DNA from: Candidatus Poribacteria bacterium
Lineage (GTDB): Bacteria; Poribacteria; WGA-4E; WGA-3G
Length of the DNA stretch: 64,000 bases
Direction: 5' to 3'
Assembly (NCBI GenBank): GCA_963665235.2
Contig: CAXXLX010000001.1
Coordinates: forward strand, 1,120,001 to 1,184,000
Shown one piece after another: positions 36,109 to 59,712 of this stretch. Every line of letters begins with the position of its first letter. Positions within the stretch are counted from its first letter, which is position 1. The translations under genes and the position numbers were made by a program. The notes under the pieces were generated by a model that had not been told where the DNA came from, did no database searches, and saw only the letters and a list, made by a program, of their open reading frames with translations.

Positions 36109-36622
36109 AATCAGCTCTTGTGAAAATATTCAGGCACACCTGTCAATCTATTTTGACGATGAGATGCCCCTATGGAAACGGCACCTCATCCGACAGCATC
36201 TGAAAAGATGTTCTGCCTGCGCGGAGCAGGCCGCATCCATTCAGCGAACAGATAAACTCCTTCGCTTTGTGGAACCTGTTGAAGCCTCTGAGACCTTCTT
36301 ATCGCATGTCATGCGACGCGTATCGACGGTGAAAACTTATCAGAAACCGCAACGTTCAGGTCTCCACCGACTCGGAATTTTCGTAGAGAAGATATTCACG
36401 CGGCTCCGACACAACATTCGCGCCTATACCCCCATTTATACGTTGGTGTTAACCTTCGCGGTCTTTACAATGATAGGCGTAACATTCTGCTTGCCACCGG
36501 GCGAAAAATTTGAACCGAAAACGCAATTTGATGCGGAGATGTCCGAAGCACATCGTGAAAAACTGATTCTGTTCGAAGTGATTCCGACACAGCACACTAA
36601 ACAAATTCTGAAAACCCGTTAA
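36095..36622 (+). CDS. zf-HC2 (ZAS) anti-sigma factor
   Basis: HLKRCSAC motif plus a TM helix; overlaps the ECF sigma gene. Confidence 0.85.
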   Translation: MQKYRISSCENIQAHLSIYFDDEMPLWKRHLIRQHLKRCSACAEQAASIQRTDKLLRFVEPVEASETFLSHVMRRVSTVKTYQKPQRSGLHRLGIFVEKIFTRLRHNIRAYTPIYTLVLTFAVFTMIGVTFCLPPGEKFEPKTQFDAEMSEAHREKLILFEVIPTQHTKQILKTR

Positions 36623-37276
36623 TCCTGCTAATCATGAAGATTCGCGCAACGCTAAAATAGTAATATGGAAAATACTCGAAATAGAAATCAATCCGCAGTG
36701 GGTCTGATAAACTTACCGTTTCAACGATACAATTTGGTAGTAAGAGACCCGTTTTATGCGTATCCTGACGATATGCTGCGATTTCTCCTGCAGGAAAAGA
36801 AATTCAGGTTCGTTGAACATTTAGACAGTGAATTAGCCACGGTTGAAGTCCGAACCATGGACATCTTATTAAAGGTGGAGATTGATGGAAAACCAGTCCT
36901 GATACATTGTGAAATACAGACAGACGATTCAAACCCAAACATGACTAGGCGAAATGTTGGATATATGGGCAGATGTTACGAACGATACGGACTGCCTATC
37001 TATTCCTCCGTGATTTATCTGAGGGAAACCGCAGGGAGTAGAGACACCGGCGGGTATATACAAGATATACCCGGATATCGTTTCATCGTTGAGTATCAGG
37101 TAATACGATTGTCCAAGATTGAGGGCGAGCCTATACTTCAAGCCAAATCCCCAGGGCTAATGCCATTCACACCTTTGATGAAAACTCCTGAAGGTATGTC
37201 AGAGGTTGAGTGGACAAAACGTTGTGTAGAAGTGACGAAATCACTTGATATAGATGTACAGTTAAGGAATAACTTA

Positions 37277-37779
37277 TACCATTTTTATTAATTATTCTAT
37301 CATTACCGGTTGTTAGAAATCAAACGGAGAACGGAAGACACAAACTGGAAGTTTATGCTACAATAAAGTGCACAAACTGGAAGTTTATGCTACAATAAAG
37401 TGCACAAACTGGAAGTTTATGCTACAAGAAAGAGCACAAACTGGAAGTTTATGCTACAATAAAGTGCACAAACTGGAAGTTTATGCTACAATAAAGTGCA
37501 CAAACTGGAAGTTTATGCTACTACAAGAAAGAGCACAAACTGGAAGTTTATGCTACAATAAAGTGCACAAACTGGAAGTTTATGCTACAAGAAAGTGCAC
37601 AAACTGGAAGTTTATGCTACAAGAAAGTGCACAAACTGGAAGTTTATGCTACAAGAAAGAGCACAAACTGGAAGTTTATGCTACAAGAAAGAGCACAAAC
37701 TGGAAGTTTATGCTACAATAAAGTGCACAAACTGGAAGTTTATGCTACAAGAAAGAGACATTTCCAATTAGAAATGGTA
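37277..37779. mobile_element. MITE-A copy 2 with 13 x ~32-bp REP-like units
   Basis: Same termini as copy 1; TTA duplication at 37274-76 and 37780-82. Confidence 0.88.
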
Positions 37780-37920
37780 TTACTTGTGGAACAGTGGGTC
37801 TTGAGCGGGTTGCGACATGGCCAACAAGACTTGCTAAGCACACTATCGGAGGATATTTTGAACAACTCACCGGTTTACGACCTGATTATTGAACGCGGCA
37901 TCGAACGCGGACGAGAACAA

Positions 37921-38016
37921 GGCATCGAACAAGGCATCGAACAAGGCATCGAACAAGGCATCGAACAAGGCATCGAACAAGGCATCGAACAAGGCATCGA
38001 ACAAGGCATCGAACAA
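37921..38016 (+). repeat. coding tandem repeat, 8 x GGCATCGAACAA (GIEQ)
   Basis: Perfect 12-bp units read directly from the sequence. Confidence 0.9.
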
Positions 38017-38709
38017 GGAAAGCAGCTAGGTGCAAAAGAGAGCACTATTGACAACATTCTCGGATTGATTGACCGACGTTTCAATATCAACGCTGCGCCT
38101 GCCTTAACACCTTTGCTCGAACCGATTGATGATTTACAGCAACTCCAACAACTGCTTTACGAAGCGTTAGACGCAGCACATTTGGAGGATTTCATCCGAA
38201 CGGTAACGGAAAGCACACGCTAACTAGCAACAGTGGGTCTTGAGCGGGTTGCGACATGACCAATAAGACCTGCTAACGGAAATTACTAAACTTTGGACAA
38301 TTTTAGGGAGGCACAACGTTCTTGTCAAAGGGATAGGTGGAAGGTTGGAAGATTGGAAGGGTGGAAGAGGGGAAGAGGTTTTTGAGGCGCGGCAGAGATA
38401 TGCTTAGCATCACAACCTTCTTGCTAACTGCCAACTGCCAAGGGTTTCCAACATTCTATAAACATTCCGCCCCGCTGGGGTAACCGTGCTTTGGAAAACC
38501 CATCGGCGGAAACCATTTTTCTCCTGTTTGCATTTGTGTGAGGCACTTAGAGAAAAATCAGAGATGCTTTGAAAGCGGGGATCCGACTCATGGATATTGT
38601 CCAAACTATAGTAACGGAAATTAACCGAACAATCAAAACTAACAAACATAAGGAGGGCGGGCTTTCCTCGCCACTTTGAAAGACGGGGACTTCAGTCCGT
38701 GAAATTTCA

Positions 38710-40464
38710 ATGAAATCTATAACCCGTAGTGCACTAGGCGTTTCCATGATACTCCACGTGATACTGCTGATTTTACTGTTTTTCTTCGTAGTACGCGACC
38801 AAGTACTCGCCCCTTTTCTTGATAAAGTAGACGTGGAACTTATATCAGCACCGAAACCCCTACAACCGAAGATGATAATAAAACCCCCGAAACCGCAGAT
38901 GCGACAGGTACAGGTCCATGAGGCAGAAAAGACACCTGTCACTAGGGTCGCCCCTATCCCAAACGCTGAATTCCAAGAGCGGCTTACCACCAAGGTTCCT
39001 GTCGATACAACACAACCTAACCTCAAACAGGTGGAGAAGGTGCCAACAGTAAAAACGGATATCAGCACCGCACTCGAAGACTTTACCACGAGGGACAGCC
39101 AGTTATCGCCTGCTGAAACGGCTGACATAACAGGCGAGAGAGCGTTCGGCGGGAAAACTGTTGGAGTACAAGGCGTTCGACGGACACCTACCCGCTCCAC
39201 CCTGGGGTTCTCGGAGACTGAAACCGGTACAGAGCCTGCACAAATCGGGGACCTCCACGAAAAGGGACAGACTTTGGACATCATCCCCTTCGACCGAATT
39301 CTGAGAAGCCTCGCAAGCAAAATCGTTGGCACAAGCGAAGGCGGGCCTATTGATGTCGTTTTCGTCGTTGATAACAGCGGCAGTATGAGCGATAATATCA
39401 GGGCAGTTTCAACACACCTCCGAGAGATGGTGGATGTCTACGAAAACACCGGAATTGATTACGCCCTCGGACTAACCCAATTCTGGACGAATGAAGGTGA
39501 AAACGTCATTCAACTCATACCCCTGACGCAAGACCTAAGGCAATACCGACGCGACATTGAAGAAATGTCTACTTACAGAGATGAAAATGCATTAGACGCT
39601 ATTATCAAAACTGTCAGAGAATTCGAATTTCGCGCAACGTCCAAAAAACATTTTATCCTCGTTACCGATGAACCTTTCACAAGCTTAGTCGGCGTAACCC
39701 TAGAAGACGCTATTGCCCTTTGCAGAGAATTCGGCATTTATGTCAATGTCCTCGGATTGGAGGACGACGAACACAAATTGCTTGCCAAAGAAACCGGTGG
39801 CAGTTGGCACGTCATCCCTGGACTGGCAAAAAAGATGTTACGTCCTCAAGTGCAGCGACCCAATACACCCCAAAACCCGCAACGCCAAACCCGGAATCTC
39901 CGAAAAGCACAATGGGCAAGCGTCAGTAAAATTGGCGATGCATTACTTCAAACCGTCGGAAGTACCCCCGTCGATATTATCCTATTTATTGATAGCAGTA
40001 AAAGCATGGAAGATAAAATTCCACACTTTTTGAACCAGCTGGACATCCTGGTACGCGATTGGGATAATGCACTTATTGACTATCAACTCGGCGCAGTACG
40101 GTTTCGGGCACGCGGGGCAGTCAACATCGTCAATACTTTCGACCCACCGCAAACGCTTGAAGAGGTTAAGAAAATCGCAGAACTCCCATGCGAAAAAGAT
40201 GAAAATGTTTCTGAAGCTTTGACCGAAGGACTACAACGGATTAAACTCCGCCCCAATGCAAAACCTTACCTCATCCTGATTACGGATGAACCGGTCCGAG
40301 ACAAAGCCTCAGCCCTGGCTGCCATTCGATACTTAAAGCAGAAAAAGGCTACTCTCAGCGTTATCGGCACTTATGACGATTTCCAGGAACGGGTCGCCAT
40401 CGAAACAGGAGGCATCTGGATACCCATCCCTGATGGACATACAACTAACGTAACACAGTGGTAG
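38710..40464 (+). CDS. membrane-anchored protein with two VWA domains
   Basis: N-terminal TM; DVVFVVDNSGSM and DIILFIDSSKSM MIDAS motifs; ILVTDE and ILITDE. Confidence 0.85.
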   Translation: MKSITRSALGVSMILHVILLILLFFFVVRDQVLAPFLDKVDVELISAPKPLQPKMIIKPPKPQMRQVQVHEAEKTPVTRVAPIPNAEFQERLTTKVPVDTTQPNLKQVEKVPTVKTDISTALEDFTTRDSQLSPAETADITGERAFGGKTVGVQGVRRTPTRSTLGFSETETGTEPAQIGDLHEKGQTLDIIPFDRILRSLASKIVGTSEGGPIDVVFVVDNSGSMSDNIRAVSTHLREMVDVYENTGIDYALGLTQFWTNEGENVIQLIPLTQDLRQYRRDIEEMSTYRDENALDAIIKTVREFEFRATSKKHFILVTDEPFTSLVGVTLEDAIALCREFGIYVNVLGLEDDEHKLLAKETGGSWHVIPGLAKKMLRPQVQRPNTPQNPQRQTRNLRKAQWASVSKIGDALLQTVGSTPVDIILFIDSSKSMEDKIPHFLNQLDILVRDWDNALIDYQLGAVRFRARGAVNIVNTFDPPQTLEEVKKIAELPCEKDENVSEALTEGLQRIKLRPNAKPYLILITDEPVRDKASALAAIRYLKQKKATLSVIGTYDDFQERVAIETGGIWIPIPDGHTTNVTQW

Positions 40465-40533
40465 CTCGAAAACGTTACCACAGCAGTTGTGCTTACTCCC
40501 ACGGGAGTAGGCACACCCCGTTTTAGAGATAAA

Positions 40534-41145
40534 ATGAAAATAGCGGTCCTTGTTTCCGGGAGCGGAACCAATTTACAAACCCTCATTGACCAGTTACATC
40601 AAGATGAAAATAGCGGTATCGAAATTGCTGTCGTGATTAGCGACCGACAGCAGGCTTACGCCTTGACACGCGCGAAACGTGCCGACATCCCAACGCTGGT
40701 TGTTAGAACAAAACATTTTGAAAACCGAATCGATTATGACGCTGAAATCTCACGGCACATCGAACATTACGCCGCTGAACTCGTCGTACTTGCCGGGTTT
40801 ATGAAGCTGTTCCAACCCCCGTTCGTCCAAAAATACCGGAATCGCATCATTAACATACACCCCACGCTTCTGCCAGCATTCCCCGGAGCCACCCCGGTTG
40901 CCGATACGTTGGCTTACGGTGTTAAAGTGACAGGGGTCACCGTTCACTTCGTTGATGAAGGCGTAGATTCAGGACCTATTATCGCACAAACCGCCGTACC
41001 GGTGCTTGATACGGACGACGCAGAAAGCCTACATAACCGCATACAGATTGAAGAACACGAACTCTACCCCAAGGTGATTAAGTGGTACGCCCAAGGACAC
41101 CTGAAAATCGAGGGGCGAAAAGTTATCATCGAAAAGAAATGTTAG
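40534..41145 (+). CDS. purN: phosphoribosylglycinamide formyltransferase
   Basis: LVSGSGTNLQ, NIHPTLLP and GVTVHFVDEGVDSGPII motifs. Confidence 0.95.
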   Translation: MKIAVLVSGSGTNLQTLIDQLHQDENSGIEIAVVISDRQQAYALTRAKRADIPTLVVRTKHFENRIDYDAEISRHIEHYAAELVVLAGFMKLFQPPFVQKYRNRIINIHPTLLPAFPGATPVADTLAYGVKVTGVTVHFVDEGVDSGPIIAQTAVPVLDTDDAESLHNRIQIEEHELYPKVIKWYAQGHLKIEGRKVIIEKKC

Positions 41146-42098
41146 CAATATCGACAATGTGGAACGCGCTTCGGCAACAGGACGGGGCGGAACTGTTTGA
41201 CGAGCTGAAACGCCTCGGTTTCGAGACAATTGAACTCAGCCGACACCTTACACATGAACAGCTAGAACAACTTAAGCTGTCTCTCCGTGATGTTGGACAA
41301 GTACCGCCCTGCTCTATACACAATTTTTGCCCGATTTTACCCAATACCTCCCAAGCTGAAGCGGAACATGACAAAATTCTGCTGTCCAGCCTGGATACAG
41401 ATGAACGGAAAGAGGCACTCCGCCGAACCTTACAAACGATGCAACTCGCCACAGAACTGGAAATACCCACCGTGGTACTTCACCTCGGCGCAGTAGACAC
41501 GTACGACCGTTCCTATCTCATGACTGACCTTTACAACTATGGCGAACGTGAGTTTGAGGCTTTTCAGAAAAAAGTGACGGAAGCAACGGAATGGCGAAAA
41601 CGCAAAGCCGCGAAACATCAAGACGCTATACTCCGAAGTCTTGACACACTAAACGAACACGCACTCCGAATGGACCTCTACATCGCTATTGAGAATCGAC
41701 CCCACTATTATCAAATACCGAATTTTGACGAAGTCGCCTTGTGCTTCGAGAAATTCTACGGCAGCCCAACCCGCTATTGGCACGACGTTGCACATGCCGC
41801 ATACCAAGAAAAACTCGGCCTCTGCCGCGCACACGAATGGCTCGATGCATACACTGAACATCTCATCGGGGTTAACCTGCACGACATGCAAGACCTCGAA
41901 CCTTACCATCTACCAGGAACAGGCGACCTGCTGTGGGAGGCGGTGTTCGAGCAACTCCCCGCGGAGGTCGTAAAGGTATTGGAAATTCAGCACGGAGACG
42001 CGGAAGCGGTAATACAAGCCCGTGAGTTCTGTGAATCGCTAATTCAAAATATTGACAAACGTTACAATGAAGTGTATAATATTAACACTAGTTCGTAA
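41139..42098 (+). CDS. sugar phosphate isomerase/epimerase (xylose isomerase-like TIM barrel)
   Basis: VVLHLG, IAIENR, WHDVAHA, LHD, HLPGTG and VLE motifs. Confidence 0.8.
   Translation: MLAISTMWNALRQQDGAELFDELKRLGFETIELSRHLTHEQLEQLKLSLRDVGQVPPCSIHNFCPILPNTSQAEAEHDKILLSSLDTDERKEALRRTLQTMQLATELEIPTVVLHLGAVDTYDRSYLMTDLYNYGEREFEAFQKKVTEATEWRKRKAAKHQDAILRSLDTLNEHALRMDLYIAIENRPHYYQIPNFDEVALCFEKFYGSPTRYWHDVAHAAYQEKLGLCRAHEWLDAYTEHLIGVNLHDMQDLEPYHLPGTGDLLWEAVFEQLPAEVVKVLEIQHGDAEAVIQAREFCESLIQNIDKRYNEVYNINTSS
42052..42080 (+). promoter_or_regulatory. consensus sigma70 promoter of Rpn gene 2 (identical copy at 51642-51670 for gene 3)
   Basis: TTGACA-AACGTTACAATGAAGTG-TATAAT with a 17-nt spacer. Confidence 0.7.
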
Positions 42099-42127
42099 TT
42101 ATCCCTGTTTTGAAGGATAACATCCCT

Positions 42128-42965
42128 ATGAAAGATAGGACAGAAGATTTTTTTAGACAGCTACTCGAAGCATTACCGCATCAACGCTACGATATTGTAA
42201 GCAAAGGCATATTCGCGGTGTTTGCCGAGGCCTTGTTGCGACATTTTACCAAAATCCGTGACCTTGAGTTCATAGAACAGCTCGATACAGAGCTGCCAAC
42301 CGTTGAAATCCGCCGCATGGATATTTTGGCAAAGGTGCGCATTAATGGTAAAGAGGTCTTGGTGCATATAGAGTTTCAAGTCGGCAGCCAGCCCGAAACA
42401 GAAATAGTGAAACGGAAACTGGCTAATGGCTATTGGCTATTGGCTTATGGCAAGATTTTCTGATTCTAATAAGAACTCTAACGCGCGTCAGAGTCCTCTT
42501 CTTCTTTTGCCAATTGCTAATCGCCAATTGCTAATCGCTAAATTGGCATTCACGCCCCTAATGAAGCGACCGGACGATGTATCCGCGGTGGAATGGGTCG
42601 AACGGTGTCACGAACAGGTACGCACGCTGGAGCTTGACCCTGATGTTCAAGACAACCTACTACTTTGGCAATGGATTCTGAGCGGGTTAATAGTTGACCC
42701 CGAAGAAATCAAACACCTAATGGAGGTTCCCATGTTTGAATCATCCACTTATCGATATATCTTCGAACAAGGACAACAAGAAAATGCTGTCAAAAACATC
42801 TTGAGTGTCCTTGATGTTCGCTTCGGCATCGGCACAGATCAAACCTTGCAGATAGAACTCGAGCAGATAGAAGACATACAACGCCTCGAAGCACTGCACC
42901 GAACAGCTGTCCAAACAGATAGTGTCGAGGCATTCATGCAAAAATTGACTGAAAACGGAAAATAG
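42128..42965 (+). pseudogene. Rpn/YhgA-like nuclease gene 2; central ~65 codons replaced by a repeat element
   Basis: RRMDILAK..VHIEFQ, then non-homologous 42418-42543 with a stop, resuming at AFTPLMKRP; homologous to gene 1. Confidence 0.78.
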
Positions 42966-43044
42966 CCGCAGGCAGCCCCAGCAATGGATTTAGCGCGGGT
43001 TAATCGTTGACCTGTCAGACATTGCACATCTTATGGAGGTTTCC

Positions 43045-43279
43045 ATGTTTGAATCATCAACTTATCGATATATCTTCGAACAAGGACAACAAGAAATTGC
43101 TGTCAAAAACATCTTGAGTGTCCTTGACGTTCGATTCGGCATCGGCACAGACGAAACCTTGCAGATAGCTCTTGAGGCGATAGAAGACATGCAACGCCTC
43201 GAAGCACTGCACCGAACAGCTGTGCAAGGTCGATACCTTCGATGCATTCAGGCAGACCTTGACTGAAAACGGAAAATAG
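43045..43279 (+). CDS. stand-alone Rpn C-terminal domain copy 1 (RpnS-like; apparent +1 frameshift near 43227)
   Basis: GGAGG-N5-ATG, then MFESSTYRYIFEQGQQE... nearly identical to the gene 2 C-terminus. Confidence 0.6.
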
Positions 43280-43398
43280 CACCGGGCAGCTCCGCAGATG
43301 GATTTCGCGCGGGTTATAGGTATCAGCCGATAGCTTACAACCCGCGTAATCCCGTAATCCGCAATAATCCCAGATCCTGACAAAAAATGGAGGTTCCC

Positions 43399-43633
43399 AT
43401 GTTTGAATCATCTACTTATCGATATATCTACGAACAAGGGCAACGAGAAATTACTGTTAAATACACCTTGAATTGTCCTTGACGCTCGATTCGGCATCGG
43501 CACAGATGAAAACTTGCAGATAGCTCTCGAGCAGATAGAAGACATGCAACGTCTCGAAACACTGTACCGAACAGCTGTGCAAACTGATAGTGTCGAGGCA
43601 TTCATGCAAACCTTAACAGAAAACGGAAAATAA
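43399..43633 (+). CDS. stand-alone Rpn C-terminal domain copy 2 (apparent +1 frameshift near 43472)
   Basis: GGAGG-N5-ATG, then MFESSTYRYIYEQG...FMQTLTENGK*. Confidence 0.55.
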
Positions 43634-44177
43634 TACCATTTTTATTAATTATTCTATCATTACCGGTTGTTAGAAATGAAACGGAGACCCAAACGGAAGA
43701 CCACAAACTGGAAGTTTATGCTACGATAAAGCGCACAAACTGGAAGTTTATGCTACGATAAAGCGCACAAACTGGAAGTTTATGCTACGATAAAGCGCAC
43801 AAACTGGAAGTTTATGCTACGATAAAGCGCACAAACTGGAAGTTTATGCTACGATAAAGCGCACAAACTGGAAGTTTATGCTACGATAAAGCGCACAAAC
43901 TGGAAGTTTATGCTACGATAAAGCGCACAAACTGGAAGTTTATGCTACGATAAAGATAAAGCGCACAAACTGGAAGTTTATGCTACGATAAAGCGCACAA
44001 ACTGGAAGTTTATGCTACGATAAAGCGCACAAACTGGAAGTTTATGCTACGATAAAGCGCACAAACTGGAAGTTTATGCTACGATAAAGCGCACAAACTG
44101 GAAGTTTATGCTACGATAAAGCGCACAAACTGGAAGTTTATGCTACAATAAAGAGACATTTCCAATTAGAAATGGTA
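43634..44177. mobile_element. MITE-A copy 3 with 14 x 32-bp REP-like units
   Basis: Same termini; TAA duplicated at 43631-33 (a stop codon) and 44178-80. Confidence 0.88.
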
Positions 44178-44299
44178 TAACCCCGCACTGAAACATTAAC
44201 TTTACGCACCCCCTCTAAAAATTTTTATTTGACAAAATGATGCAAATTTGGCATAATCGTACTATAAACATTAATCTATTAAGAAGGAGAGATTTTTTG

Positions 44300-46401
44300 A
44301 TGATTCAAATACTAACAAAGTATAGAACTTTTGGAGGCACCTCTCATACTCCTATCCTGCCTTGTCTTGGTGCTATACAGTACGCCTGTGGACGCACAGC
44401 GCAGTGAAGCCACAGTTGCAGGAATCTGGACATTTGACGATGGTACTGCAAACGATAGTTCAAATCAAGGATTAAACGGCGTGATTGTTGGCAAACCGAA
44501 GTCCGTAAAGGGGCTCGCTAACAACGCCTTTGAATTCAATGGCACAAGCGACGGTATAAAGATTCCGGACTCACCCAGAATCAACATCACTAACAAAGTT
44601 ACAAACCGGACAATCGCAGCCCTTTTTAATTGTAGTGATGTCAACAAGGATCAGAAGCAGGTGATTTTCGAGGAGGGAGGTCAGACCCGCGGATTAGCTA
44701 TCTATGTGTTTGAAGGGAAAGTCTACATCGGCGGTTGGAATCGCGCCGAATACAACTGGGCAGGTGCATGGCCCTCCACGGACATCAAATCGAATCAATG
44801 GTACCATATCGGTCTAGTGCTAAGTCAGGCTGCTTTGGTAATTGACGGGTAAAGTTTTTTGAGTTTTATACGTGCATCGTCAGTTGTAAACCGCCAGTCG
44901 GAATATATCGGCACGTTGTTCGTTTCTTCGGTTTTGATAACGCCCGTATCTCCTTCTTTAGGGTCTCTTGGTCAGCGATCCGCTTTGAAAGACAGCCGCG
45001 GGATAGCACCGATAGTTCAATCTCCGCCATATTCAACCAACTGCCATGCTTCGGGGTATAGATGAAACTCAAGTCTTTTCGCAATACGCCGGGCTTCAGC
45101 CGGTTCAAAAGTTTATACAGCGAAGCGGTTTTATGTGTGTTGAGATTGTCACAAACGAGTGTAATCTTTTCAGCCTCCGGAAAATGGACATCCACTAGGT
45201 CTCGGCAAATGAAGGCAAAGTCAATGCTTGTGCGTCTGTCGGTTACCTCAACGTGCCGAAATCCGTCAAAGGGTGCGAAAATCATGAACAGATTACTCAC
45301 ACCATTTCGCTGGTATTGATAATCATATCGGAGCGGAGCCCCTTCAACCATGGGTAAAGGGCTTCGGGTTTCTTTGATGTGTTGTTTACTTGTTTCATCA
45401 ACACAAACTACAGGATTTTTGGTATCTTGTGGACACTGATAGACTTCGAGAACATCTTCCATCGCTGCAACGAACTCCGCATTTGATTCGGGAGGAATAC
45501 ACCATTGCTTTATTAGCCAAGGGCTAAAACCGATTTTTTTAGGACCCGGCGTATGGTCTCGTGAGATATGCTATCAAAATGTTCCAATCTCCACCATTAT
45601 TTTCCGCTAACATCGAAGCGTCCATCTCGCACACCTCTGGCGGTTCCGAGCAAACTAAAGCGATTAGATGTGCTTCTTTTTCACCATCAAACTTTTTGCC
45701 TGGGGTGTCTGAACGCTTTTTCGGGTTGAGTGCGGCTGTGAGGTTTTCAAGCACAAAGGCTTTACGGGTTGCAAACGATAGTTCTCAATAGCCCGGTATT
45801 GCTTCAACAGCCTTTTTATTTTATCATCAAGTAGGCGGGTCCGAACTCGCCTTCATCGGCTTTCAAGAGGATCCGGGCACGGCCCTAAGTTTGCGTGCCG
45901 ATTCTTTCCCAGAAGATATCAGAGTAAGGAGATAATCTCGTTGGGTCAGATCAAGAATGACTTGATATTGTTTTGCTGCCATAATAGACTCGGCGGTTAT
46001 GAATCGCGCACGAATACAACTCATGCATACCCTTTATCAATCAACTATCAAGCAATGACCTAACACTAGTCATTCGCAACGCTGCCGCAAAGGTGGAAAA
46101 AGACAAGCTTGAAATGTGGCTTGATGGCGAACTTATTGCCAAAGAATCGGGCGGGCTGCTGAATCCACACGCCGATGATAACGGCATCGGTTTCCTCAAT
46201 CAAAATTCCTTCTATCATGATGGCGGACGCGGAGCTACCAACACCGACTGGTTCGGCGGCCTAATTGACGAAGTTATTATCTACGGCTCCGCTTTTAACA
46301 AGGCGGATTTTCAGGCAGTCGCACAGCCGCTAAGTGTCGAACCAGCAGGAAAATTCACAACGACCTGGGCAAACCTAAAGACCCGGCGAACGCAAAACTA
46401 G
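44300..46401 (+). pseudogene. secreted LamG-like domain protein interrupted by IS630
   Basis: Excising 44817-46066 plus one TA gives WYHIGL|VIRNAAAKVEKDKLEMWLDG, colinear with the downstream paralog; additional frameshift near 44335. Confidence 0.82.
44817..46066 (-). mobile_element. IS630-family insertion sequence with frameshifted transposase (start ~45982)
   Basis: VVCVDET, DNLNTH and YTPKHGSWLNMAEIE motifs; imperfect TIR GTG(C/T)TA(A/G)GTCA; TA duplication within CTAG. Confidence 0.9.
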
Positions 46402-46516
46402 GTTTATCAAGATTTAGGCAATGTACCACTCGGCACCAAAACGAGCCTATCGGGTTCAATTGCGTAAATTCTACTTACTACAACGCGGAGACATCTCCGC
46501 AGAGGAGAAGAAAAAA

Positions 46517-47350
46517 ATGACAAAATTTATCTCTATTTTCACTGTTTTACTCATGCTCGTCGCTCTATCTGTCCACGCAGCAAGAGACGAAGCAACGGCT
46601 AGAGCTATTTGGACCTTTGATGAAGGCAATGCTGCTGATACCTCCGGCAACAATGTCAACGGAAATTTAGTCGGTGACCCTGAAGTTGTCGACGGTATCG
46701 TCGGAAAAGCATTTCAATTCGACGGGATAGATGATGGTATCAAATTACCGGATGCCAACGGGCTCAACACAGGCGGCCCCTTCACGAACAGAACGATTGC
46801 GGCTTACTTCAAATGTGACGACGTTAGTGTCACAGACCAAAAACAGACTATCTTTGAATCGGGCGGTCGGACCCGCGGTTTCGTTGTCAATGTCTTTGAT
46901 GGACGCGTCTACGTAGGGGCGTGGAACCGTGCCGAGTACCGATGGGAGGGGGCATGGCCCTCTGCCGCTGTCGACTCTGGCAGATGGTATCACGTTGCAT
47001 TAGTCCTCCGGGATACGAAGAACGCCGTTGAAGATGACAAATTTGAGCTGTGGCTCGATGGAGAAAAGATTGCCAGCGAACCCGGCGGTCAGCTCAACGC
47101 ACACGCGGACGATATCGGTATAGCACATACCAACACAAACGCTGTTTTCCACGATGACGATGGAGCTGGCACTAACATTCACTACTTTGGCGGCACTATT
47201 GATGAGGTTATTGTCTATAACTCCGCATTTGATGCCGATGATTTCGCGGAATATGCTGATGTCATTCAGGCAGCTACAAGTGTTGAACCACAAGGCAAAT
47301 TTACCACAACATGGGGAACGTTGAAAGCACAACGCATAGGCATGCGATAG
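46517..47350 (+). CDS. secreted LamG-like (concanavalin A-like) domain protein
   Basis: Signal peptide, IWTFDEG, WYHVALV, GTIDEVIVYN, C-terminal SVEPQGKFTTTWGTLK. Confidence 0.85.
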   Translation: MTKFISIFTVLLMLVALSVHAARDEATARAIWTFDEGNAADTSGNNVNGNLVGDPEVVDGIVGKAFQFDGIDDGIKLPDANGLNTGGPFTNRTIAAYFKCDDVSVTDQKQTIFESGGRTRGFVVNVFDGRVYVGAWNRAEYRWEGAWPSAAVDSGRWYHVALVLRDTKNAVEDDKFELWLDGEKIASEPGGQLNAHADDIGIAHTNTNAVFHDDDGAGTNIHYFGGTIDEVIVYNSAFDADDFAEYADVIQAATSVEPQGKFTTTWGTLKAQRIGMR

Positions 47351-47434
47351 ACATTATGCGGCTTTGATTCAGATCTAACAAGGCAAGCTAATCATTTTCG
47401 ATACCATTGGACAAAAGGTTTCTTATCTCACGCA

Positions 47435-47466
47435 GCACGGTAGTTTTTTATCTGCCGTGCTTTTCT
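47435..47466 (+). terminator. putative intrinsic terminator
   Basis: AGCACGGTAG...CTGCCGTGCT followed by T residues. Confidence 0.5.
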
Positions 47467-47555
47467 GTTCCTGCCAAAATGGCACAATCCAAAACACAAT
47501 CCTGCCCTTTAAGATTTCCAGACGGTTCACCGTGTCAAAAAGACCCGATAAACAT

Positions 47556-47570
47556 TGGCATAAATTTTGC
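47556..47570 (+). promoter_or_regulatory. sigma54 (-24/-12) promoter upstream of clpB
   Basis: TGGCATAAATTTTGC fits TGGCA-N6-TTGC with exact GG/GC spacing; palindrome TGCCAAAATGGCA at ~47472. Confidence 0.55.
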
Positions 47571-47650
47571 TATAACCTAAGCCTAAAATAACGTGAGTTT
47601 GAAAAAAAGTTTTTGACCTGCGGTGTCCTCCGATATTTTTAGCGAAGACA

Positions 47651-47960
47651 GCACAAACTAGGAAGTATGTGCTACAAAATAAAATCCAAAGCACAAACTA
47701 GGAAGTATGTGCTACAAAATAAAATCCAAAGCACAAACTAGGAAGTATGTGCTACAAAATAAAATCCAAAGCACAAACTAGGAAGTATGTGCTACAAAAT
47801 AAAATCCAAAGCACAAACTAGGAAGTATGTGCTACAAAATAAAATCCAAAGCACAAACTAGGAAGTATGTGCTACAAAATAAAATCCAAAAGCACAAACT
47901 AGGAAGTATGTGCTACAAAATAAAATCCAAAGCACAAACTAGGAAGTATGTGCTACAAAA
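47651..47960 (-). repeat. 8 x 40-bp tandem REP-like units in the clpB leader
   Basis: Unit GCACAAACTAGGAAGTATGTGCTACAAAATAAAATCCAAA; reverse complement of the core starts with GTAG. Confidence 0.9.
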
Positions 47961-47984
47961 TACAAATCGCAAAGGAGCTATAAA

Positions 47985-50564
47985 ATGAGACTCGATAGAT
48001 TTACAATTAAAGCACAAGAAGCACTACAAACCGCACAAACGTTAGCAAGCGAAGCACAAAACCCGGAGCTTGGCGTTGAGCATCTGATGCTCTCCCTTAT
48101 CGAACAGACAGATGGCATTGTCACGCCAATTTTGCAGAAATTAGGGGCGGACATCCACGGAATTACCGAGGCACTTGCCGCAGTCGTTCAAAAAAAACCC
48201 ACTGTACAAGGTGCAACCTCGGAACTGCAGCTCTCCGCCGCACTTCAAACTGTCTTAGAGACTGCTCTCAAAGAGGCGACATCACTTAAAGATGAATACG
48301 TTAGTACAGACCATCTCCTGATTGCCTGTGCTGAATCGAAGCAGAGCCAAGCCGGACAAATTCTACGGGACGCTGGCGTAACGAAGGACAAAATCCTCAA
48401 ATCCCTCGTTGACATTCGTGGCACCCAACGGATAACCGACCGGAATCCGGAGGACAAATATCAAGCACTCACCCGATTTGGTAGAGAGCTCACACAAGAG
48501 GCACTCGCCGGCACACTTGACCCTGTTATCGGGCGGGATGATGAAATCCGACGCCTGATGCAAGTCCTCTCCCGAAGACGCAAAAACAATCCTGTCCTGA
48601 TTGGTGAACCGGGAGTCGGGAAAACGGCTATCGTGGAAGGCTTGGCACAGCGGATTGCGGATGGAGACGTACCGGAAACCCTGCGCGAAAAACGGCTCAT
48701 CGCGCTGGACCTTGGCGCACTTATCGCTGGCAGTAAATATCGCGGTGAATTTGAAGACCGACTCAAAGCGGTCCTCAAAGACATAGAACAGGCAGCGGGA
48801 CAGGTTATCCTCTTCATCGACGAACTCCATACCATTGTCGGGGCGGGTGCAGCGGAAGGCGCAGTGGACGCATCTAACATGCTCAAACCCGCCCTTGCAC
48901 GCGGCGAATTGCGATGCATCGGTGCAACTACACTCGATGAATATAGGAAACATATCGAAAAAGATGCAGCCCTCGAACGCCGATTCCAACCCGTTCAGGT
49001 ATATGAACCCTCCGTTGAAGGGACAATCGCTATCCTCCGGGGCTTGAAGGAACGATATGAAACACATCACGGCGTACAAATCCAAGACAACGCTATTGTC
49101 GCCGCAGCTACGCTCTCAAAACGGTACATCGCTGACCGATTCCTGCCCGATAAAGCGGTTGACCTCATGGACGAAGCGGCATCCCGATTGCGCATCGAAA
49201 TCGATAGCGTCCCCGAGCAAATCGATGATGTCGAACGCCGGATCATCCAACTCCAAATTGAACAGCAGGCCCTCGAAAAAGAGGAAGACGAGGCATCAAA
49301 ACAACGTCTCGATAAACTGAACGGCGAACTCGCTGAACTCAAAGAGAAAGCGAACACCCTAAAAACCAAATGGCAAAACGAAAAAGCAAACCTGGTACAG
49401 ATTCGAAAACTGATGGAACAGGTTGAAGCACTCCGCACTGAATCCGAACAGGCGAAGCGCGCCGGCAACCTCGCCAAAGCGTCAGAGCTGGAATACGGCA
49501 AAATACCTGCACTTGAAGCACAACTTAAATCGCTACGGGAAACGCTTGAAACAACAGCGAACGGCACACAGATGCTAAAAGAACGGGTCAGTGCTGAAGA
49601 TATCGCCGAAATTGTCGCAAAATGGACAGGCATCCCCGTTTACCGACTTATGGAAGGCGAAACGCAAAAACTGCTCCACATGGAAGAACGACTCCGAGAA
49701 CAGGTCATCGGACAGGATGAGGCGGTCTCTGCTGTTGCTAACGCAATTCGCCGCTCACGTGTTGGGCTCAGCGACCCGGAGCGACCCCTCGGCTCGTTCC
49801 TCTTCATGGGACCGACCGGTGTCGGAAAAACGCACCTGGCAAAATCCCTTGCAGAATTTCTGTTCGACGATGTCAACGCTATGATACGTATCGATATGAG
49901 TGAATACATGGAAAAGCATACCGTCTCCAAGCTTATCGGCGCACCCCCAGGCTACATCGGATACGATGAAGGTGGACAACTCACCGAAGCGGTCAGACGA
50001 CACCCATATTGTGTTATCCTCCTAGACGAAGTCGAAAAGGCGCACCCTGAGGTGTTTAATGTCCTCCTCCAGATGCTTGATGATGGCAGAATGACCGATG
50101 GACACGGCCGAACGGTCGATTTTAAGAATACTGTTGTTATCATGACCTCTAATATCGGCAGTCAATGGATTAGCGACACCGAACTCACTGCACCCGACAT
50201 TCACAAGAAAGTGATGAACGCTTTACAGGCACATTTCCCACCGGAATTTCTAAACCGTATCGATAACCTAATCATTTTTGAACGGCTCGGCATTGATGAA
50301 TTGAAACAGATTGTCACCCTTGAACTTGCAAAACTGAGCGGACGGTTTGCCGAAAAGGATATGACGCTAACGCTCACCGAAACCGCAAAGGCGGAACTTG
50401 TCACACGCGGATTTGATGCTGTATACGGCGCACGTCCCTTGCGACGAACACTCCAACGTGATATTCTCAATCCGTTGGCAATTCAGATGCTTGAAGGCAA
50501 TTTCCACAATGGCGATGCTGTCACCGTCGATGTCGCAGATGACGCATTCGTCTTCCGTAATTAA
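47985..50564 (+). CDS. clpB: ATP-dependent chaperone ClpB
   Basis: Two AAA+ modules ([16 protein letters not shown]) with a long coiled-coil middle domain. Confidence 0.96.
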
Positions 50565-50580
50565 ACGTAAGTTGCCCATC

Positions 50581-50607
50581 GTAGGGGCGAGGTCACCTCG
50601 CCCCTAC
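50581..50607 (+). repeat. GTAG palindrome after clpB (related copy at ~13732-13758)
   Basis: GTAGGGGCGAGG-TCA-CCTCGCCCCTAC perfect hairpin. Confidence 0.7.
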
Positions 50608-50717
50608 GGCGGGCGCGATTGTAGGGAAACCGTTCATTGACCATCTATAAACGTTACAAGCGCGAGGGTTTCTGCCCCCGCTTCTCAGTCCTGTAGGGAC
50701 GATATGTTTATAGAACA

Positions 50718-50868
50718 ACGTGAGTTTGAAAAAAGTTTTGACCTAGAGCGTTCTCTGGTAGTTTTAGCAAAAAACTGCACAAACTAGGAAGTATGTGCTA
50801 CAATGATGCTGCTTTTTTCTCGGTGAAAAAGGTTTAGAGCAAACGGATATTTATTATCAAGTTCACTT
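50718..50868. mobile_element. MITE-B with one REP unit, nested in a family-C repeat
   Basis: Imperfect TIR ACGTGAGTTTGA / TCAAGTTCACTT flanked by direct repeat TAGAACA; related ends at ~47591, ~62734 and ~16420-16449. Confidence 0.6.
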
Positions 50869-50889
50869 TAGAACAACAAAACGACCCTG

Positions 50890-51595
50890 TCCTAGTCCCG
50901 TAGGGACGATATCTTTCTAGAAAACCCAAACAACACACAAACTAGCCCCAGCGGGGCGATATCTTTATAGAAAACGCAACCACACACAAACTAGTCCCGT
51001 AGGGACGATATCTTTCTAGAAAACCCAAACAACACACAAACTAGCCCCGTAGGGACGATATCTTTATAGAAAACGCAACCACACACAAACTAGCCCCGTA
51101 GGGGCGATATCTTTATAGAAAACGCAACCACACACAAACTAGCCCCAGCGGGGCGATATCTTTCTAGAAAACGCAACCACACACAAACTAGCCCCAGTAG
51201 GGGCGATATCTTTCTAGAAAACCCAAACAACACACAAACTAGTCCCGTATCTTTATAGACGATATCTTTCTAGAAAACGCAACCGGTTGTTAGAAACACA
51301 AAGACCCAAACTAAAAGTTTATCCCAAACTGGTTTATGGGACGAGTTTATCTTTCTAGATGGTATTAAATCCCAAACAACGATTGACACAAACTAGTGTA
51401 TAATATTAACCCGTGAAGGGACGATATCAGATTCTAGAAAACCCAAACAACACACAAACTAGCCCCGTAGGGACGATATCTTTCTAGAAAACGCAACCAC
51501 ACACAAACATTAGTCCCGTAGGGACGATATCTTTGGCGAAGGTAGAAAACGCAACCACACACAAACTAGCCCCAGCGGGGCGATATCTTTATAGA
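50890..51595 (+). repeat. tandem array of family-C hairpin repeats (~52-bp period), scrambled in its central part
   Basis: Repeated CACACAAACTAG(C/T)CCC...GGG(A/G)CGATATCTTT(A/C)TAGAAAAC. Confidence 0.8.
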
Positions 51596-51715
51596 ATGTT
51601 GGTTATTAGAATCACAACCTCTTGCCAATCGCTAATAACGATTGACAAACGTTACAATGAAGTGTATAATATTAACATGCATAATTATCCCAGCTTTGAA
51701 GGATAACATCCCATC

Positions 51716-52553
51716 ATGACAGATAGGATAGAAGAATTTTTTAGACAGCTACTTGAAGCCTTACCGCATCAACGCTACGATATTGTAAGCAAAGGCATAT
51801 TCGCCGTATTCGCTGAAGCATTGTTGCGACATTTTACAAACATCCGAGACCTCGAGTTCATTGAACACCTCGATACGGAACTCCCAACCGTCGAAATCCG
51901 ACGCATGGATATTTTGGCGAAGGTCCGAATTAATGGTAAAGAGGTTTTAGTCCATATAGAGTTCCAAGTCAGCAGCCAACCCGAAACAGAAATAGTGAAA
52001 CGGAAACTGGCTAATGGCTATTGGCTATTGGCTTATGGCAAGATTTTCTGATTCTAATAAGAACTCTAACGCGCGTCAGAGTCCTCTTCTTCTTTTGCCA
52101 ATTGCTAATCGCCAATTGCTAATCGCTAAATTGGCATTCACGCCTTTGATGAAGCGACCGGACGATGTATCCGCCGTGGAATGGGTCGAACGGTGCCACG
52201 AACAGGTACGTGCGCTGGACCTTGATTTTGATGTTCAAAACAACTTACTACTTTGGCAATGGATTCTGAGCGGTTTAATAGTTGACCCCGCAGAAATCAA
52301 ACATCTAGTGGAGGAAAACATGTTTGAATCATCTACTTATCGATATATCTTCGAACAAGTACAGCAACAAACTACTGTCAAAAACATCTTGAGTGTCCTT
52401 GATGTTCGCTTCGGCATCGGCACAGATGAAACCTTGCAGATATCTCTCGAGGAGATAGAAGACCTACAACGCCTCGAAGCACTGCTCGGAACAGCTGTGC
52501 AAACCGATAGTGTCGAGGCATTCAGGCAAACATTGACTGAAAACGGAAAATAG
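51716..52553 (+). pseudogene. Rpn/YhgA-like nuclease gene 3 with the same internal replacement as gene 2
   Basis: Paralog of 42128-42965; identical insert at 52006-52131; internal GGAGG-N5-ATG at 52320. Confidence 0.78.
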
Positions 52554-52695
52554 CACTGCACAGGCGCGGGGGGTTCTGCCCCCGCCTCTTAGTCCCGTAA
52601 CGTTCCCATTCCCGAAAAAATTCGTAAAAAACGCCAAAATATCAAAAAAATTAACCCAATTTCGTAAAAATTCTACATTTTTTGCAAAAAAAAAT

Positions 52696-53115
52696 TTGAC
52701 ATTCCCCCAAAATTAAGGTATACTTAATAGGTAAAATGAAAAATCAACACATTTTTTGCGAAAAATTGTTGACATCCTAACCCGTTTCATGCTATAATTA
52801 AAACGTATATAGCGAAAACGATACCGAAAATAGCCGAAATAAAAAATTAATTTGACTTTTTTGGTAAAATATCGTATACTTAAGTATGTGAACGGAAAAT
52901 CAACCAACGCATCGCAAAAAAAAATTGTTGACAAACATATCCGTTTTATCGTATAATTAAATGTAAAGTTGTAAAAACGGCAACGAAAACAGAAACGTAA
53001 CACGGACCTAAAAATTTGACATTTTTTTGTAACCCGTGTAAAATACGTAACGTTAGATAAACGTAAACCCGAAAAAACAGTAGCGGTTGACATTTTTTGT
53101 AACCGACGCTATAAT
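52696..53115 (+). promoter_or_regulatory. six tandem sigma70-type promoters
   Basis: TTGAC(A/T) at 52696, 52769, 52852, 52928, 53016 and 53087, each followed after 17-18 nt by TATACT, TATAAT or TAAAAT. Confidence 0.75.
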
Positions 53116-53545
53116 GGGTAACGTTAATTAGAACGAGTTTGGCGTAAACAACCGAGCAACAAAAATGCAATTGCGACTTGCACATCCCTCTGAAAAACCC
53201 AGTTTTTCAGCGCGACCCGCAGGCATCACTCGGACAAACAGAAAATCCCAACGCCAAAAAACGTTCTCGGTAGGCGAAGGTATGGGACACACGGAAAAAT
53301 CCCAACCCCCTACACACACATGTTTTAGGAAGACGAGGATTCAACATAAGTGCATCTGCACACAACAAGTTTTGAACCCCCAACACTCCTAATACTATAG
53401 GTTAGTAGAATAGATTATCATATCCCTGAATCTGTTCTTGATATTTCATTTTGTAGTATTGTCGGGCGCGATAGTACGCAATACGCACATCGCCCCAAAA
53501 TTAAATGTTTTAGTTAGATTTTATATAATAGAGGAGAAATAAGTA

Positions 53546-58424: not shown

Positions 58425-58898
58425 ATGCCTAACACCTACACCCAACTTTACATACACATTATCTTCGCTGTAAAAAGCAGACAACCCCTCATTTCAAAAC
58501 AACATAAAGCAGAACTAGAACAGTATATAACAGGTATCATCAGAAACAAAGGGCAGAAACTTATACAGATTAACGCCATGCCTAATCACATCCATATCCT
58601 AATTGGAATGACCCCAGACATTGCGGTGTCAGATTTGGTCCGGGACATAAAGGCAAATTCATCAAGATTCATAAACAAGAAAGGATGGCTGCGGGGAAGG
58701 TTTGAATGGCAGACAGGTTTTGGTGCATTCACCCATTCGCATTCTCATCTTGATACTGTAGCGAATTACATCAAAAATCAGGAAAAACATCATGCGCGGT
58801 TTACCTTCCGAGAGGAATATCTTAGGTTTCTAAAACGTTTCAATATTCCCTATGATGAGAGATATGTTTTTGAGGACGATACAACATCCGCGTCCTGA
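58425..58898 (+). CDS. tnpA: IS200/IS605-type Y1 HUH transposase (REP-associated-like)
   Basis: HIIFAVK, NHIHIL (HUH), WQTGFGAF and YIKNQ (catalytic Tyr); flanked by inverted family-C repeats. Confidence 0.88.
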   Translation: MPNTYTQLYIHIIFAVKSRQPLISKQHKAELEQYITGIIRNKGQKLIQINAMPNHIHILIGMTPDIAVSDLVRDIKANSSRFINKKGWLRGRFEWQTGFGAFTHSHSHLDTVANYIKNQEKHHARFTFREEYLRFLKRFNIPYDERYVFEDDTTSAS

Positions 58899-59712
58899 TT
58901 CTATAAACATAACGCCCCTATAGGGCTAATAGATTGACGGGTTGTTGCATTTTCTATAAATATACCGCCCCTACGGGGCTATAGACTTGTGGTTCCCTCG
59001 GGTTTTCTATAAATATACCGCCCCTACGGGGCTAATAAATCGATGGGTTGTTGCATTTTCTATAAATATACCGCCCCTACGGGGCTATAGACTTGTGGAA
59101 ATGCGTGAGCCGGGCCTTATGGCATTCACGCCCCTAATGAAGCGACCGGACATAGATTGACGGGTTGTTGCATTTTCTATAAATATACCGCCCCTACGGG
59201 GCTATAGACTTGTGGTTCCCTCGGGTTTTCTATAAATATACCGCCCCTACGGGGCTAATAAATCGATGGGTTGTTGATTTTCTATAAATATACCGCCCCT
59301 ACGGGGCTATAGACTTGTGGTTCCCTCGGGTTTTCTATAAATATATCGTCCCTACGGGACTAGGGGTTGTTGAAACATCTGCTTCTATAAATATATCGTC
59401 CCTACGGGACTAGGGGTTGTTGAAACATCTGCTTCTATAAATATATCGTCCCTACGGGACTATAGACTTGTGGTTCCCTCGGGTTTTCTATAAATATACC
59501 GCCCCTACGAGGCTATAGACTTGTGGTTCCCTCGGGTTTTCTATAAATATACCGCCCCTACGGGGCTATAGACTTGTGGAAATGCGTGAGCCGAGCCTTA
59601 TGGCATTCACGCCCCTAATGAAGCGACCGGACATAGATTGACGGGTTGTTGCATTTTCTATAAATATACCGCCCCTACGAGGCTATAGACTTGTGGTTCC
59701 ATCGGGTTTTCT
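58899..59712 (-). repeat. array of ~13 family-C hairpin repeats with variable linkers downstream of tnpA
   Basis: TTCTATAAATATACCGCCCCTACGGGGCTA and the GTCCCTACGGGAC variant, separated by ~20-23 nt linkers of a few types and two long linkers. Confidence 0.85.

Follow-up and report, generated by a model that had tools for sequence, protein, structure and literature searches.

Copies of the internally started C-terminal unit of Rpn-like genes as candidate orphan antitoxins in Candidatus Poribacteria

Three interrupted genes and a tandem array

We analysed a window of 64,000 nucleotides (G000:C1:1120001-1184000) from a four-contig assembly of 5.3 Mb (G000) of Candidatus Poribacteria bacterium, to which all C1 coordinates below refer. 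It contains three interrupted Rpn-like genes, the second of which is followed by small C-terminal units in tandem.

36665..37276, + strand, N-terminal part of gene 1, which belongs to another subfamily (intact sister C1:2467899-2468939)
37277..37779, + strand, MITE splitting gene 1, with a TTA target duplication
37848..38223, + strand, C-terminal unit of gene 1 (121 aa); GGAGG 37848-37852 and TTG 37858, 5-nt spacing, in frame with the C-terminal ORF
42052..42080, + strand, sigma-70 promoter consensus TTGACA-17-TATAAT upstream of gene 2, 12 of 12 matches
42129..42418, + strand, N-terminal part of gene 2, matching the intact sister to its codon 100
42419..42545, + strand, patch of a REP/REPIN-like repeat, 127 bp in place of 207 bp (codons 101-169)
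42722..42965, + strand, unit 1, an RpnS-like 77-aa C-terminal ORF; GGAGG 42722-42726 and ATG 42732, 5-nt spacing, in frame
42981..43279, + strand, unit 2, a duplicated segment starting 64 nt before the start codon; GGAGG 43035-43039 and ATG 43045, 5-nt spacing, in frame
43317..43388, + strand, short dispersed repeat in the spacer of units 2 and 3, abutting the ribosome-binding site (RBS) of unit 3
43389..43633, + strand, unit 3; GGAGG 43389-43393 and ATG 43399, 5-nt spacing, in frame; one extra base near 43471 leaves 27 aa in the assembly
43634..44177, + strand, MITE at the stop codon of unit 3, with an 8-bp terminal inverted repeat and a TAA target duplication
51718..52553, + strand, gene 3, with the patch at 52007-52133 and a 77-aa unit; GGAGG 52310-52314 and ATG 52320, 5-nt spacing, in frame

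An earlier note on this DNA had described an in-frame GGAGG-N5-start in each of the three genes (TTG 37858, ATG 42732, ATG 52320), a break upstream of that start in every case, and two diverged tandem tail copies behind gene 2 (43045 and 43399), each with its own GGAGG. All of this was confirmed. Gene 1 was broken by a MITE and genes 2 and 3 by the patch, which is one shared lesion rather than two.

The patch deletion was measured against the intact sister at C1:4132746-4133669 (P0001, 308 aa). The copies of the patch in genes 2 and 3 were identical, and a third patched paralog, L002 (C1:211.1 kb), carried one that was one base shorter. Over the whole patch tract, 165 bp were identical between genes 2 and 3 and one base differed in L002, whereas the N-terminal parts were diverged, with a pS of 0.43 and a pN/pS of 0.04 between genes 2 and 3 and ranges of 0.38-0.43 and 0.04-0.09 among the three patched paralogs. 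The lesion is thus much younger than the paralogs, and the knock-out allele was likely copied between them by gene conversion. The N-terminal frame of gene 2 continues into the patch and stops at 42463; the D/ExQ/R residues are retained and the remainder of the nuclease core is lost. With the core truncated by the patch after residue 100 and its remainder gone, an active nuclease is an unlikely product of genes 2 and 3.

The patch repeat family occupies at least 236 loci in the genome. In L003 and L004 (sisters C1:66.7 kb and 4015 kb), its closest variant has taken the place of the entire N-terminal part, and both retain the tail, its RBS and promoter-like sequence. Strains differ in the patch: a patched ORF with a different tail is encoded in another assembly (P0091), intact alleles are found in other assemblies (P0002), and contigs of the public run X3 have loose ends at 42418. 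As a dispersed repeat of the hairpin type with short repeated arms, and with a Y1 transposase in the same window, the patch resembles REPIN/RAYT repeats, but it replaces sequence rather than only inserting. Its fold is modest (z -1.9; 8 of 200 shuffles were as good), so that no strong hairpin is claimed. The idea that the repeat targets Rpn genes was unsupported, three of the five matches being one event, and repeat insertions in Rpn-like genes may be no more frequent than chance would give in dispensable DNA.

Several other mobile or repeated sequences lie in the window. The IS200-like Y1 transposase (58425-58898; PF01797, 103 bits) is followed by a REP-like tandem array (58960-59700) holding two 59-bp coding pieces of the gene 2/3 subfamily (59093-59151 and 59574-59632), which are 88-90% identical to nt 479-537 of the intact sister and overlap the right edge of the patch deletion. 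A broken IS630-family transposase (NF033545; 44866-46024) lies inside a LamG-like gene (44331-46401). At 51250-51550, MITE, promoter and repeat fragments are mixed in what looks like a noisy consensus. The two MITEs that border or split the Rpn-like genes are of one family, presumably of the Tourist/IS5-like class with its 3-bp TTA/TAA duplications. The genome contains 110 complete copies, 102 of them with a 3-bp duplication, and their length (112 to about 2000 bp) varies with an internal 29-32-bp tandem array, which in the copy at 43634..44177 has a 32-bp period. Just behind gene 1, 48 bp (38229-38276) duplicate the region immediately before its internal start and end before the RBS; this stub reads as an aborted or eroded tail copy.

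The perfect promoter consensus at 42052..42080, which is also retained upstream of gene 3, would drive the whole array. An internal promoter-like site (42665-42694, 9 of 12) was dismissed as being at chance level (5 found, 4.4 expected), and Rfam gave 0 matches on 36500-53200. Units 1-3 and the tail of gene 3 are 77-codon homologs with a mean column identity of 88%. The unit 1 ORF was modelled as one long and three short helices. Units 2 and 3 each contain one extra base in the assembly, that near 43228 shortening unit 2 to a 73-aa ORF, and both look translatable. When unit 3 was read with an X at the break, 74 of 77 residues matched an intact protein of another assembly, P0122; likewise, the tail of gene 3 occurs on the intact gene P0002 with 74 of 77 residues. 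The 5' and 3' parts of units 1-3, gene 3, L001 and L002 showed mosaic relations. The spacer repeat at 43317..43388 gave 51 blastn matches in the genome and also follows two sister genes, those at C1:210.6 kb and 4132.7 kb.

The window was compared with contigs of six public runs (X1-X6, of which X1 and X2 are from one study). The junction of units 1 and 2 was bridged with 0-2 differences in X1, X2 and X5 (two studies), and the end of unit 3 continued into the MITE in X1, X2, X4 and X5, the X5 record being 176 nt long. The right junction of the patch was bridged in X3 with 0 differences at a depth of 77 versus 27-36 for single-copy pieces, or about 2-3 times single copy, and the left junction of the gene-2-type patch was bridged in X6, from a study other than that of X3. 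The junction of gene 3 with the patch was bridged by no contig listed for the public runs. The patch lesion is real.

Of the two +1 frameshifts to which the earlier note drew attention, the one at 43471 was the more clearly explained by the public-run contigs. The extra base was absent in all covering depth (26.1 of 26.1 in two contigs of X1; 10.2 of 10.2 in one contig of X2), X4 and X5 giving no cover at this position. Since the base is absent in X1 and X2 and P0122, an intact 77-aa protein, exists elsewhere, the frameshift of unit 3 is probably an assembly error. The evidence was thinner at 43228, where the extra base was absent in the single spanning contig (X1, depth 5.06), which has 8 other differences and is possibly another allele; no closely matching contig for the window version of 43218-43258 was found in the six runs, a gap that is no evidence in either direction. 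A murA frameshift suspected as a general sign of assembly error proved to be a false lead. Metagenome and genome contigs scanned with unit 1 gave only 5 and 2 weak, unrelated matches, respectively. In terms of largest contig size, six small proteins agree with intact P0002 and three with patched P0091. These equal sizes, the only basis for the arrangement on the 38,998- and 20,175-base contigs, hint at longer arrays in other strains, and the 20,175-base contig of the other assembly appears to carry the patched gene with three intact small proteins.

The internal start and the protein family

The aligned column of the internal start was chosen on a protein alignment, and only then was the DNA examined. 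GGAGG-N5-ATG/GTG/TTG was found at this column in 18 of the 18 intact paralogs of the genome (ATG 16, GTG 1, TTG 1), GTG or TTG being used where the aligned residue is not Met. Only 2.05 such sites were expected from the residues encoded there and the codon usage of the genome, and the background in long ORFs was 116 in 1,042,985 codons; because the paralogs are not independent, no p-value is attached to 18 of 18 versus 2.05. A GGAGG-linked internal start was present in 58 of 61 full-length genes at loci from seven genomes. A separate RBS count for relatives (26 of 26) is partly circular, since the motif itself was used for their selection. The conserved in-frame internal RBS and start is a trait of RpnL/RpnS that the Poribacteria family shares, and it likely yields the C-terminal unit as a separate antitoxin.

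The genes had been labelled Rpn/YhgA-like. The internal start, the tetrad repeats and the catalytic pattern bear out the likeness to RpnL/RpnS, and the HMM cut-offs speak against formal membership. P0001 scored 19.6 bits and two paralogs 22.6 and 24.4 with TIGR01784 (cut-off 52.1). PF04754 had no match in P0001 and none listed for 103 homologs at E 0.01, its best score being 14.9 (cut-off 21) in one paralog; DUF4351 reached 15 and 13.4 in paralogs (cut-off 25). Since the TIGR01784 and PF04754 scores are below the cut-offs, we file the family as Rpn-like and not as a member. Fragments from the window were likewise rejected as Pfam/NCBIfam members, giving sub-threshold TIGR01784 and repeat-driven FliH matches only, and two homologs are named 'predicted transposase YdaD'.

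In the 103 homologs, D68, E85, Q87 and R99 are invariant and D25 is near-invariant. These residues match D11, D63, E82, Q84 and R94 of RpnA, as given in PMC5350276, by pattern and spacing and not by alignment. In the P0001 model (pLDDT 89), residues from about 20 to 150 aligned to 2ixs (SdaI), 2vld (a repair endonuclease of Pyrococcus), 2okf (the fdxN excision factor) and 8bao. These alignments to PD-(D/E)XK folds were middling (Z 5.4-5.8, rmsd 2.9-4.3 over 100-109 residues), the top rows being helical bundles, and a Foldseek search with the P0001 model returned nothing at E 0.001. By analogy with E. coli RpnL/RpnS, the full-length protein would be a toxic PD-(D/E)XK nuclease.

The tail of the P0001 family matched, with 98.9% probability, that of a true PF04754 protein encoded in the same genome, and Atlas look-alikes at 0.97 were Rpn-named or DUF4351/DUF2887 clusters. 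The 4-residue repeats are inserted in the long first helix of the small protein in variable number, and the C-terminal unit of gene 1 contains a long run of them. The helical model of the tail gave only generic bundle matches. 7TH0, the structure of RpnAS, was not among the PDB matches listed for P0001, the tail profile or the fold search with the tail model, which is no evidence of a different fold, and PADLOC 2023 held no relevant model. The true PF04754 Rpn proteins of this genome, L054 (C1:2799468-2800929) and L055 (C1:3556341-3557510), have a similar tail type and are also trailed by tail-only copies, with a longer RBS spacing.

The closest known systems are those of E. coli. According to Zhong et al. 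(2023; PMC10400941, PMC10327210; commentary in PMC10400984), RpnS is translated from within the rpn gene. Its neutralisation is cognate-specific and set by repeat number, one extra repeat abolishing it (PMC10327210). Second tail copies, ypaA/rpnESs and rpnCSs, lie downstream and are open to loss or fusion; protein is produced from ypaA, and an N-terminal domain fused with a downstream copy has been described (PMC10400941). The Poribacteria genes resemble E. coli RpnL/RpnS in the putative PD-(D/E)XK-type N-terminal domain, the internal RBS and start, the many paralogs, and a helical C-terminal unit with 4-residue repeats starting 8-20 residues after the start. They differ in being a diverged clade below the PF04754/TIGR01784 cut-offs, known here from sequence, and in having a tail of 70-140 aa and four helices versus the 5.4 kDa and three helices given for RpnAS.

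Tail copies in this genome and its relatives

The earlier note regarded the Rpn loci as reduced to an array of mini-genes and supposed intact toxins elsewhere in the genome or on incoming DNA. The first statement holds for the local picture only, and intact copies elsewhere do exist: the genome contains 18 intact genes, one of them the direct sister of genes 2 and 3. Against these 18 full copies stand, by hand count, some 27 tails that lack an intact nuclease, of which about 25 retain RBS and start. Tail copies were found behind 6 of the 18 intact genes, and no intact nuclease without its tail was seen among 26 N-domain matches in the genome. The tail of the sister at C1:4132746-4133669 has 77 aa, equal in length to units 1-3 and the gene 3 tail, and is 75-84% identical to them. 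Broken copies included L001, L080 and one at C1:768.9 kb, with stubs at C1:210.5 kb and at window 38229-38276. Identity between the L001 copy and its parent is 100% over the 5' part and 77% over the 3' part. At L050 (G000:C2:15050-17356), an internally deleted gene, an intact gene and two intact tail copies lie together; none of the 18 intact genes provides a full-length partner for its 74-aa tail type.

Of the 18 genomes of the family that were searched, 17 contained homologs. Among the full genes that were fetched, 27 of 34 in G003, 9 of 16 in G001 and almost none in G008 were followed by one to three copies, the loci having been chosen partly for having copies and not all full genes having been fetched. 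G003 has 93 tail matches, and its loci L103-L105 (G003:C1:5263500-5325400) are long tandem arrays of full-length Rpn-like genes with interspersed tail-only copies. Of the 62 copy ORF rows, 58 were complete and 53 had a start matching the parent, 45 of these 53 with GGAGG; some complete copies were only 60-70% identical to the parent. In 36 of 52 rows the left edge of the duplicated segment fell 7-62 nt ahead of the start codon, and in 10 it fell further upstream; six rows with a negative upstream extension are fragments or mis-assignments.

Of 53 copies, 9 were as long as the parent, 36 differed from it by 4 residues or a multiple thereof, and 8 differed in other ways; length variation followed 12-nt steps inside helix 1. 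Since 12-nt repeats slip spontaneously, this mismatch needs no selection. Among 46 copies of G001 and G003, 39 had no same-length partner of at least 80% identity among the fetched full genes, and in 15 of 46 cases another full gene matched the copy better than its parent did. If specificity is cognate as in E. coli, the length mismatch and the scarcity of same-length partners suggest that the majority of copies may lack a target in the cell that carries them. Copies aligned to parents contained 1 stop in 4192 codons with a pN/pS of 0.46, compared with 0.35 for intact tails among themselves and roughly 0.7 for a neutral copy; these ratios are uncorrected counts, and the kin are not independent. 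The duplicated sequence upstream of the start was also free of stops, with a pN/pS of 0.49 (672 codons). Since these upstream bases are stop-free and tails are mosaic, part of the divergence signal may predate the duplication.

Orphan antitoxins and the alternatives

We consider it fairly probable that these genes are gene-in-gene toxin-antitoxin systems, in which the nuclease halves are freely lost and the tails persist and duplicate together with their RBS. The promoter of gene 2 would then drive three orphan antitoxins, the likeliest target of which would be the intact sister or incoming alleles, and the units at 42732, 43045 and 43399 are likely a small orphan-antitoxin operon behind a dead nuclease. 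The small protein would bind the full-length protein through its long first helix and block it. Partial tandem duplication, or displacement of the old tail, would give rise to copies, which would be retained when the RBS was included and be reshuffled by recombination. If loss of the nuclease is harmless and the antitoxin is useful against sister or incoming alleles, repeats would knock out the N-terminal part and the tail would stay; one such knock-out allele likely passed among three paralogs by gene conversion. Since neutralisation is cognate-specific in E. coli, cross-protection by tails of 75-84% identity is not to be assumed. The antitoxin stockpile against intact toxins that the earlier note proposed is partly supported: the RpnL/RpnS likeness and the 18 intact genes favour it, but the 'reduced' loci are a local picture.

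The strongest alternative, which we judge unlikely, is that the internal start matters in the intact genes, whereas the broken genes and copies arose recently in a genome full of repeats and recombination and serve no function at present. Such wreckage would fit a genome in which REP-like repeats occupy at least 236 loci and the MITE is present in 110 copies, the patch is polymorphic between strains, several copies are broken and the repeat number mostly differs from the parent; mosaic tails such as L001 can explain a low pN/pS without selection on the copy. Against this, the edges of the copies cluster just upstream of the RBS, 58 of 62 rows are complete even though some are only 60-70% identical to the parent, and copies stand behind 27 of the 34 full genes fetched from G003 and 9 of the 16 from G001. 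The E. coli copy ypaA, moreover, is made as protein according to PMC10400941.

Less probable still is a role of the copies mainly as DNA donors, recombination fusing a new tail or repeat number to a nuclease and the RBS being carried along in the crossover region; such a role is not exclusive of the toxin-antitoxin reading. It would account for the mosaic 5'/3' relations, for the 36 of 53 copies offset from the parent by multiples of 4 residues, for the 15 of 46 that match another full gene better, and for the fusion of an N-terminal domain with a downstream copy in E. coli (PMC10400941). However, gene 2 has no working nuclease to receive a tail, the other assembly apparently also combines a patched gene with three small proteins, and many copies have only 7-30 nt of upstream homology. 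An origin of the array and the shared patch from collapsed or mis-polished repeats is very improbable: the frameshifts, like the 3' end of unit 2, have the appearance of consensus noise, the repeat mixtures near 51250-51550 are garbled and the gene 3/patch junction is unbridged, but the unit 1/2 and patch junctions are bridged in runs of two studies each and P0091 and P0122 come from independent assemblies.

Read as orphan antitoxins, the Poribacteria copies resemble ypaA/rpnESs and rpnCSs, as reported, in being second tail copies directly behind their own gene, nearest to it in sequence and with their own start. Unlike these, they number up to three, lie behind 6 of 18 intact genes here and most fetched G003 genes, usually differ from the parent in repeat number and persist behind dead nucleases. 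Orphan immunity arrays of the Vibrio cholerae T6SS (PMC5361080) are described as forming by sequential displacement, with old immunity genes behind the active one, and the orphan modules of Rhs/CDI (PMC3150448) are a comparable case. The likeness is an analogy only, Rpn being without known delivery to neighbours. As toxin and antitoxin share one sequence, each relic would at once be an old tip and an antitoxin.

Stand-alone RpnS copies of E. coli have already been published (PMC10400941), and with them the central part of this finding. What is new is the diverged clade, on which our literature search found no paper, the scale of the arrays, the systematic repeat-length offsets and a knock-out allele common to paralogs. 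Zhong et al. leave the role of stand-alone RpnS copies and the cause of repeat-number changes unanswered. In this clade, pairs of parent and copy with known repeat-length offsets occur naturally by the dozen, and one genome supplies a local test set of one predicted intact toxin and seven sister tails (77, 81 and 85 aa, the latter two lengths being those of L002-L004).

We suggest, as a speculative and rather doubtful extension, that Poribacteria Rpn-like toxins may form a polymorphic conflict system. Toxin genes would trail libraries of orphan antitoxins of varied repeat length, which would immunise against past, sister or incoming alleles and serve as swappable tips, while a repeat-borne knock-out allele spreading by gene conversion would give rise to promoter-driven, antitoxin-only operons. 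The analysis extends the gene-in-gene design to a family missed by standard HMMs. Should the copies prove protective in trans, toxin-antitoxin loci acting inside the cell would resemble in behaviour the orphan-immunity arrays that accompany secreted toxins.
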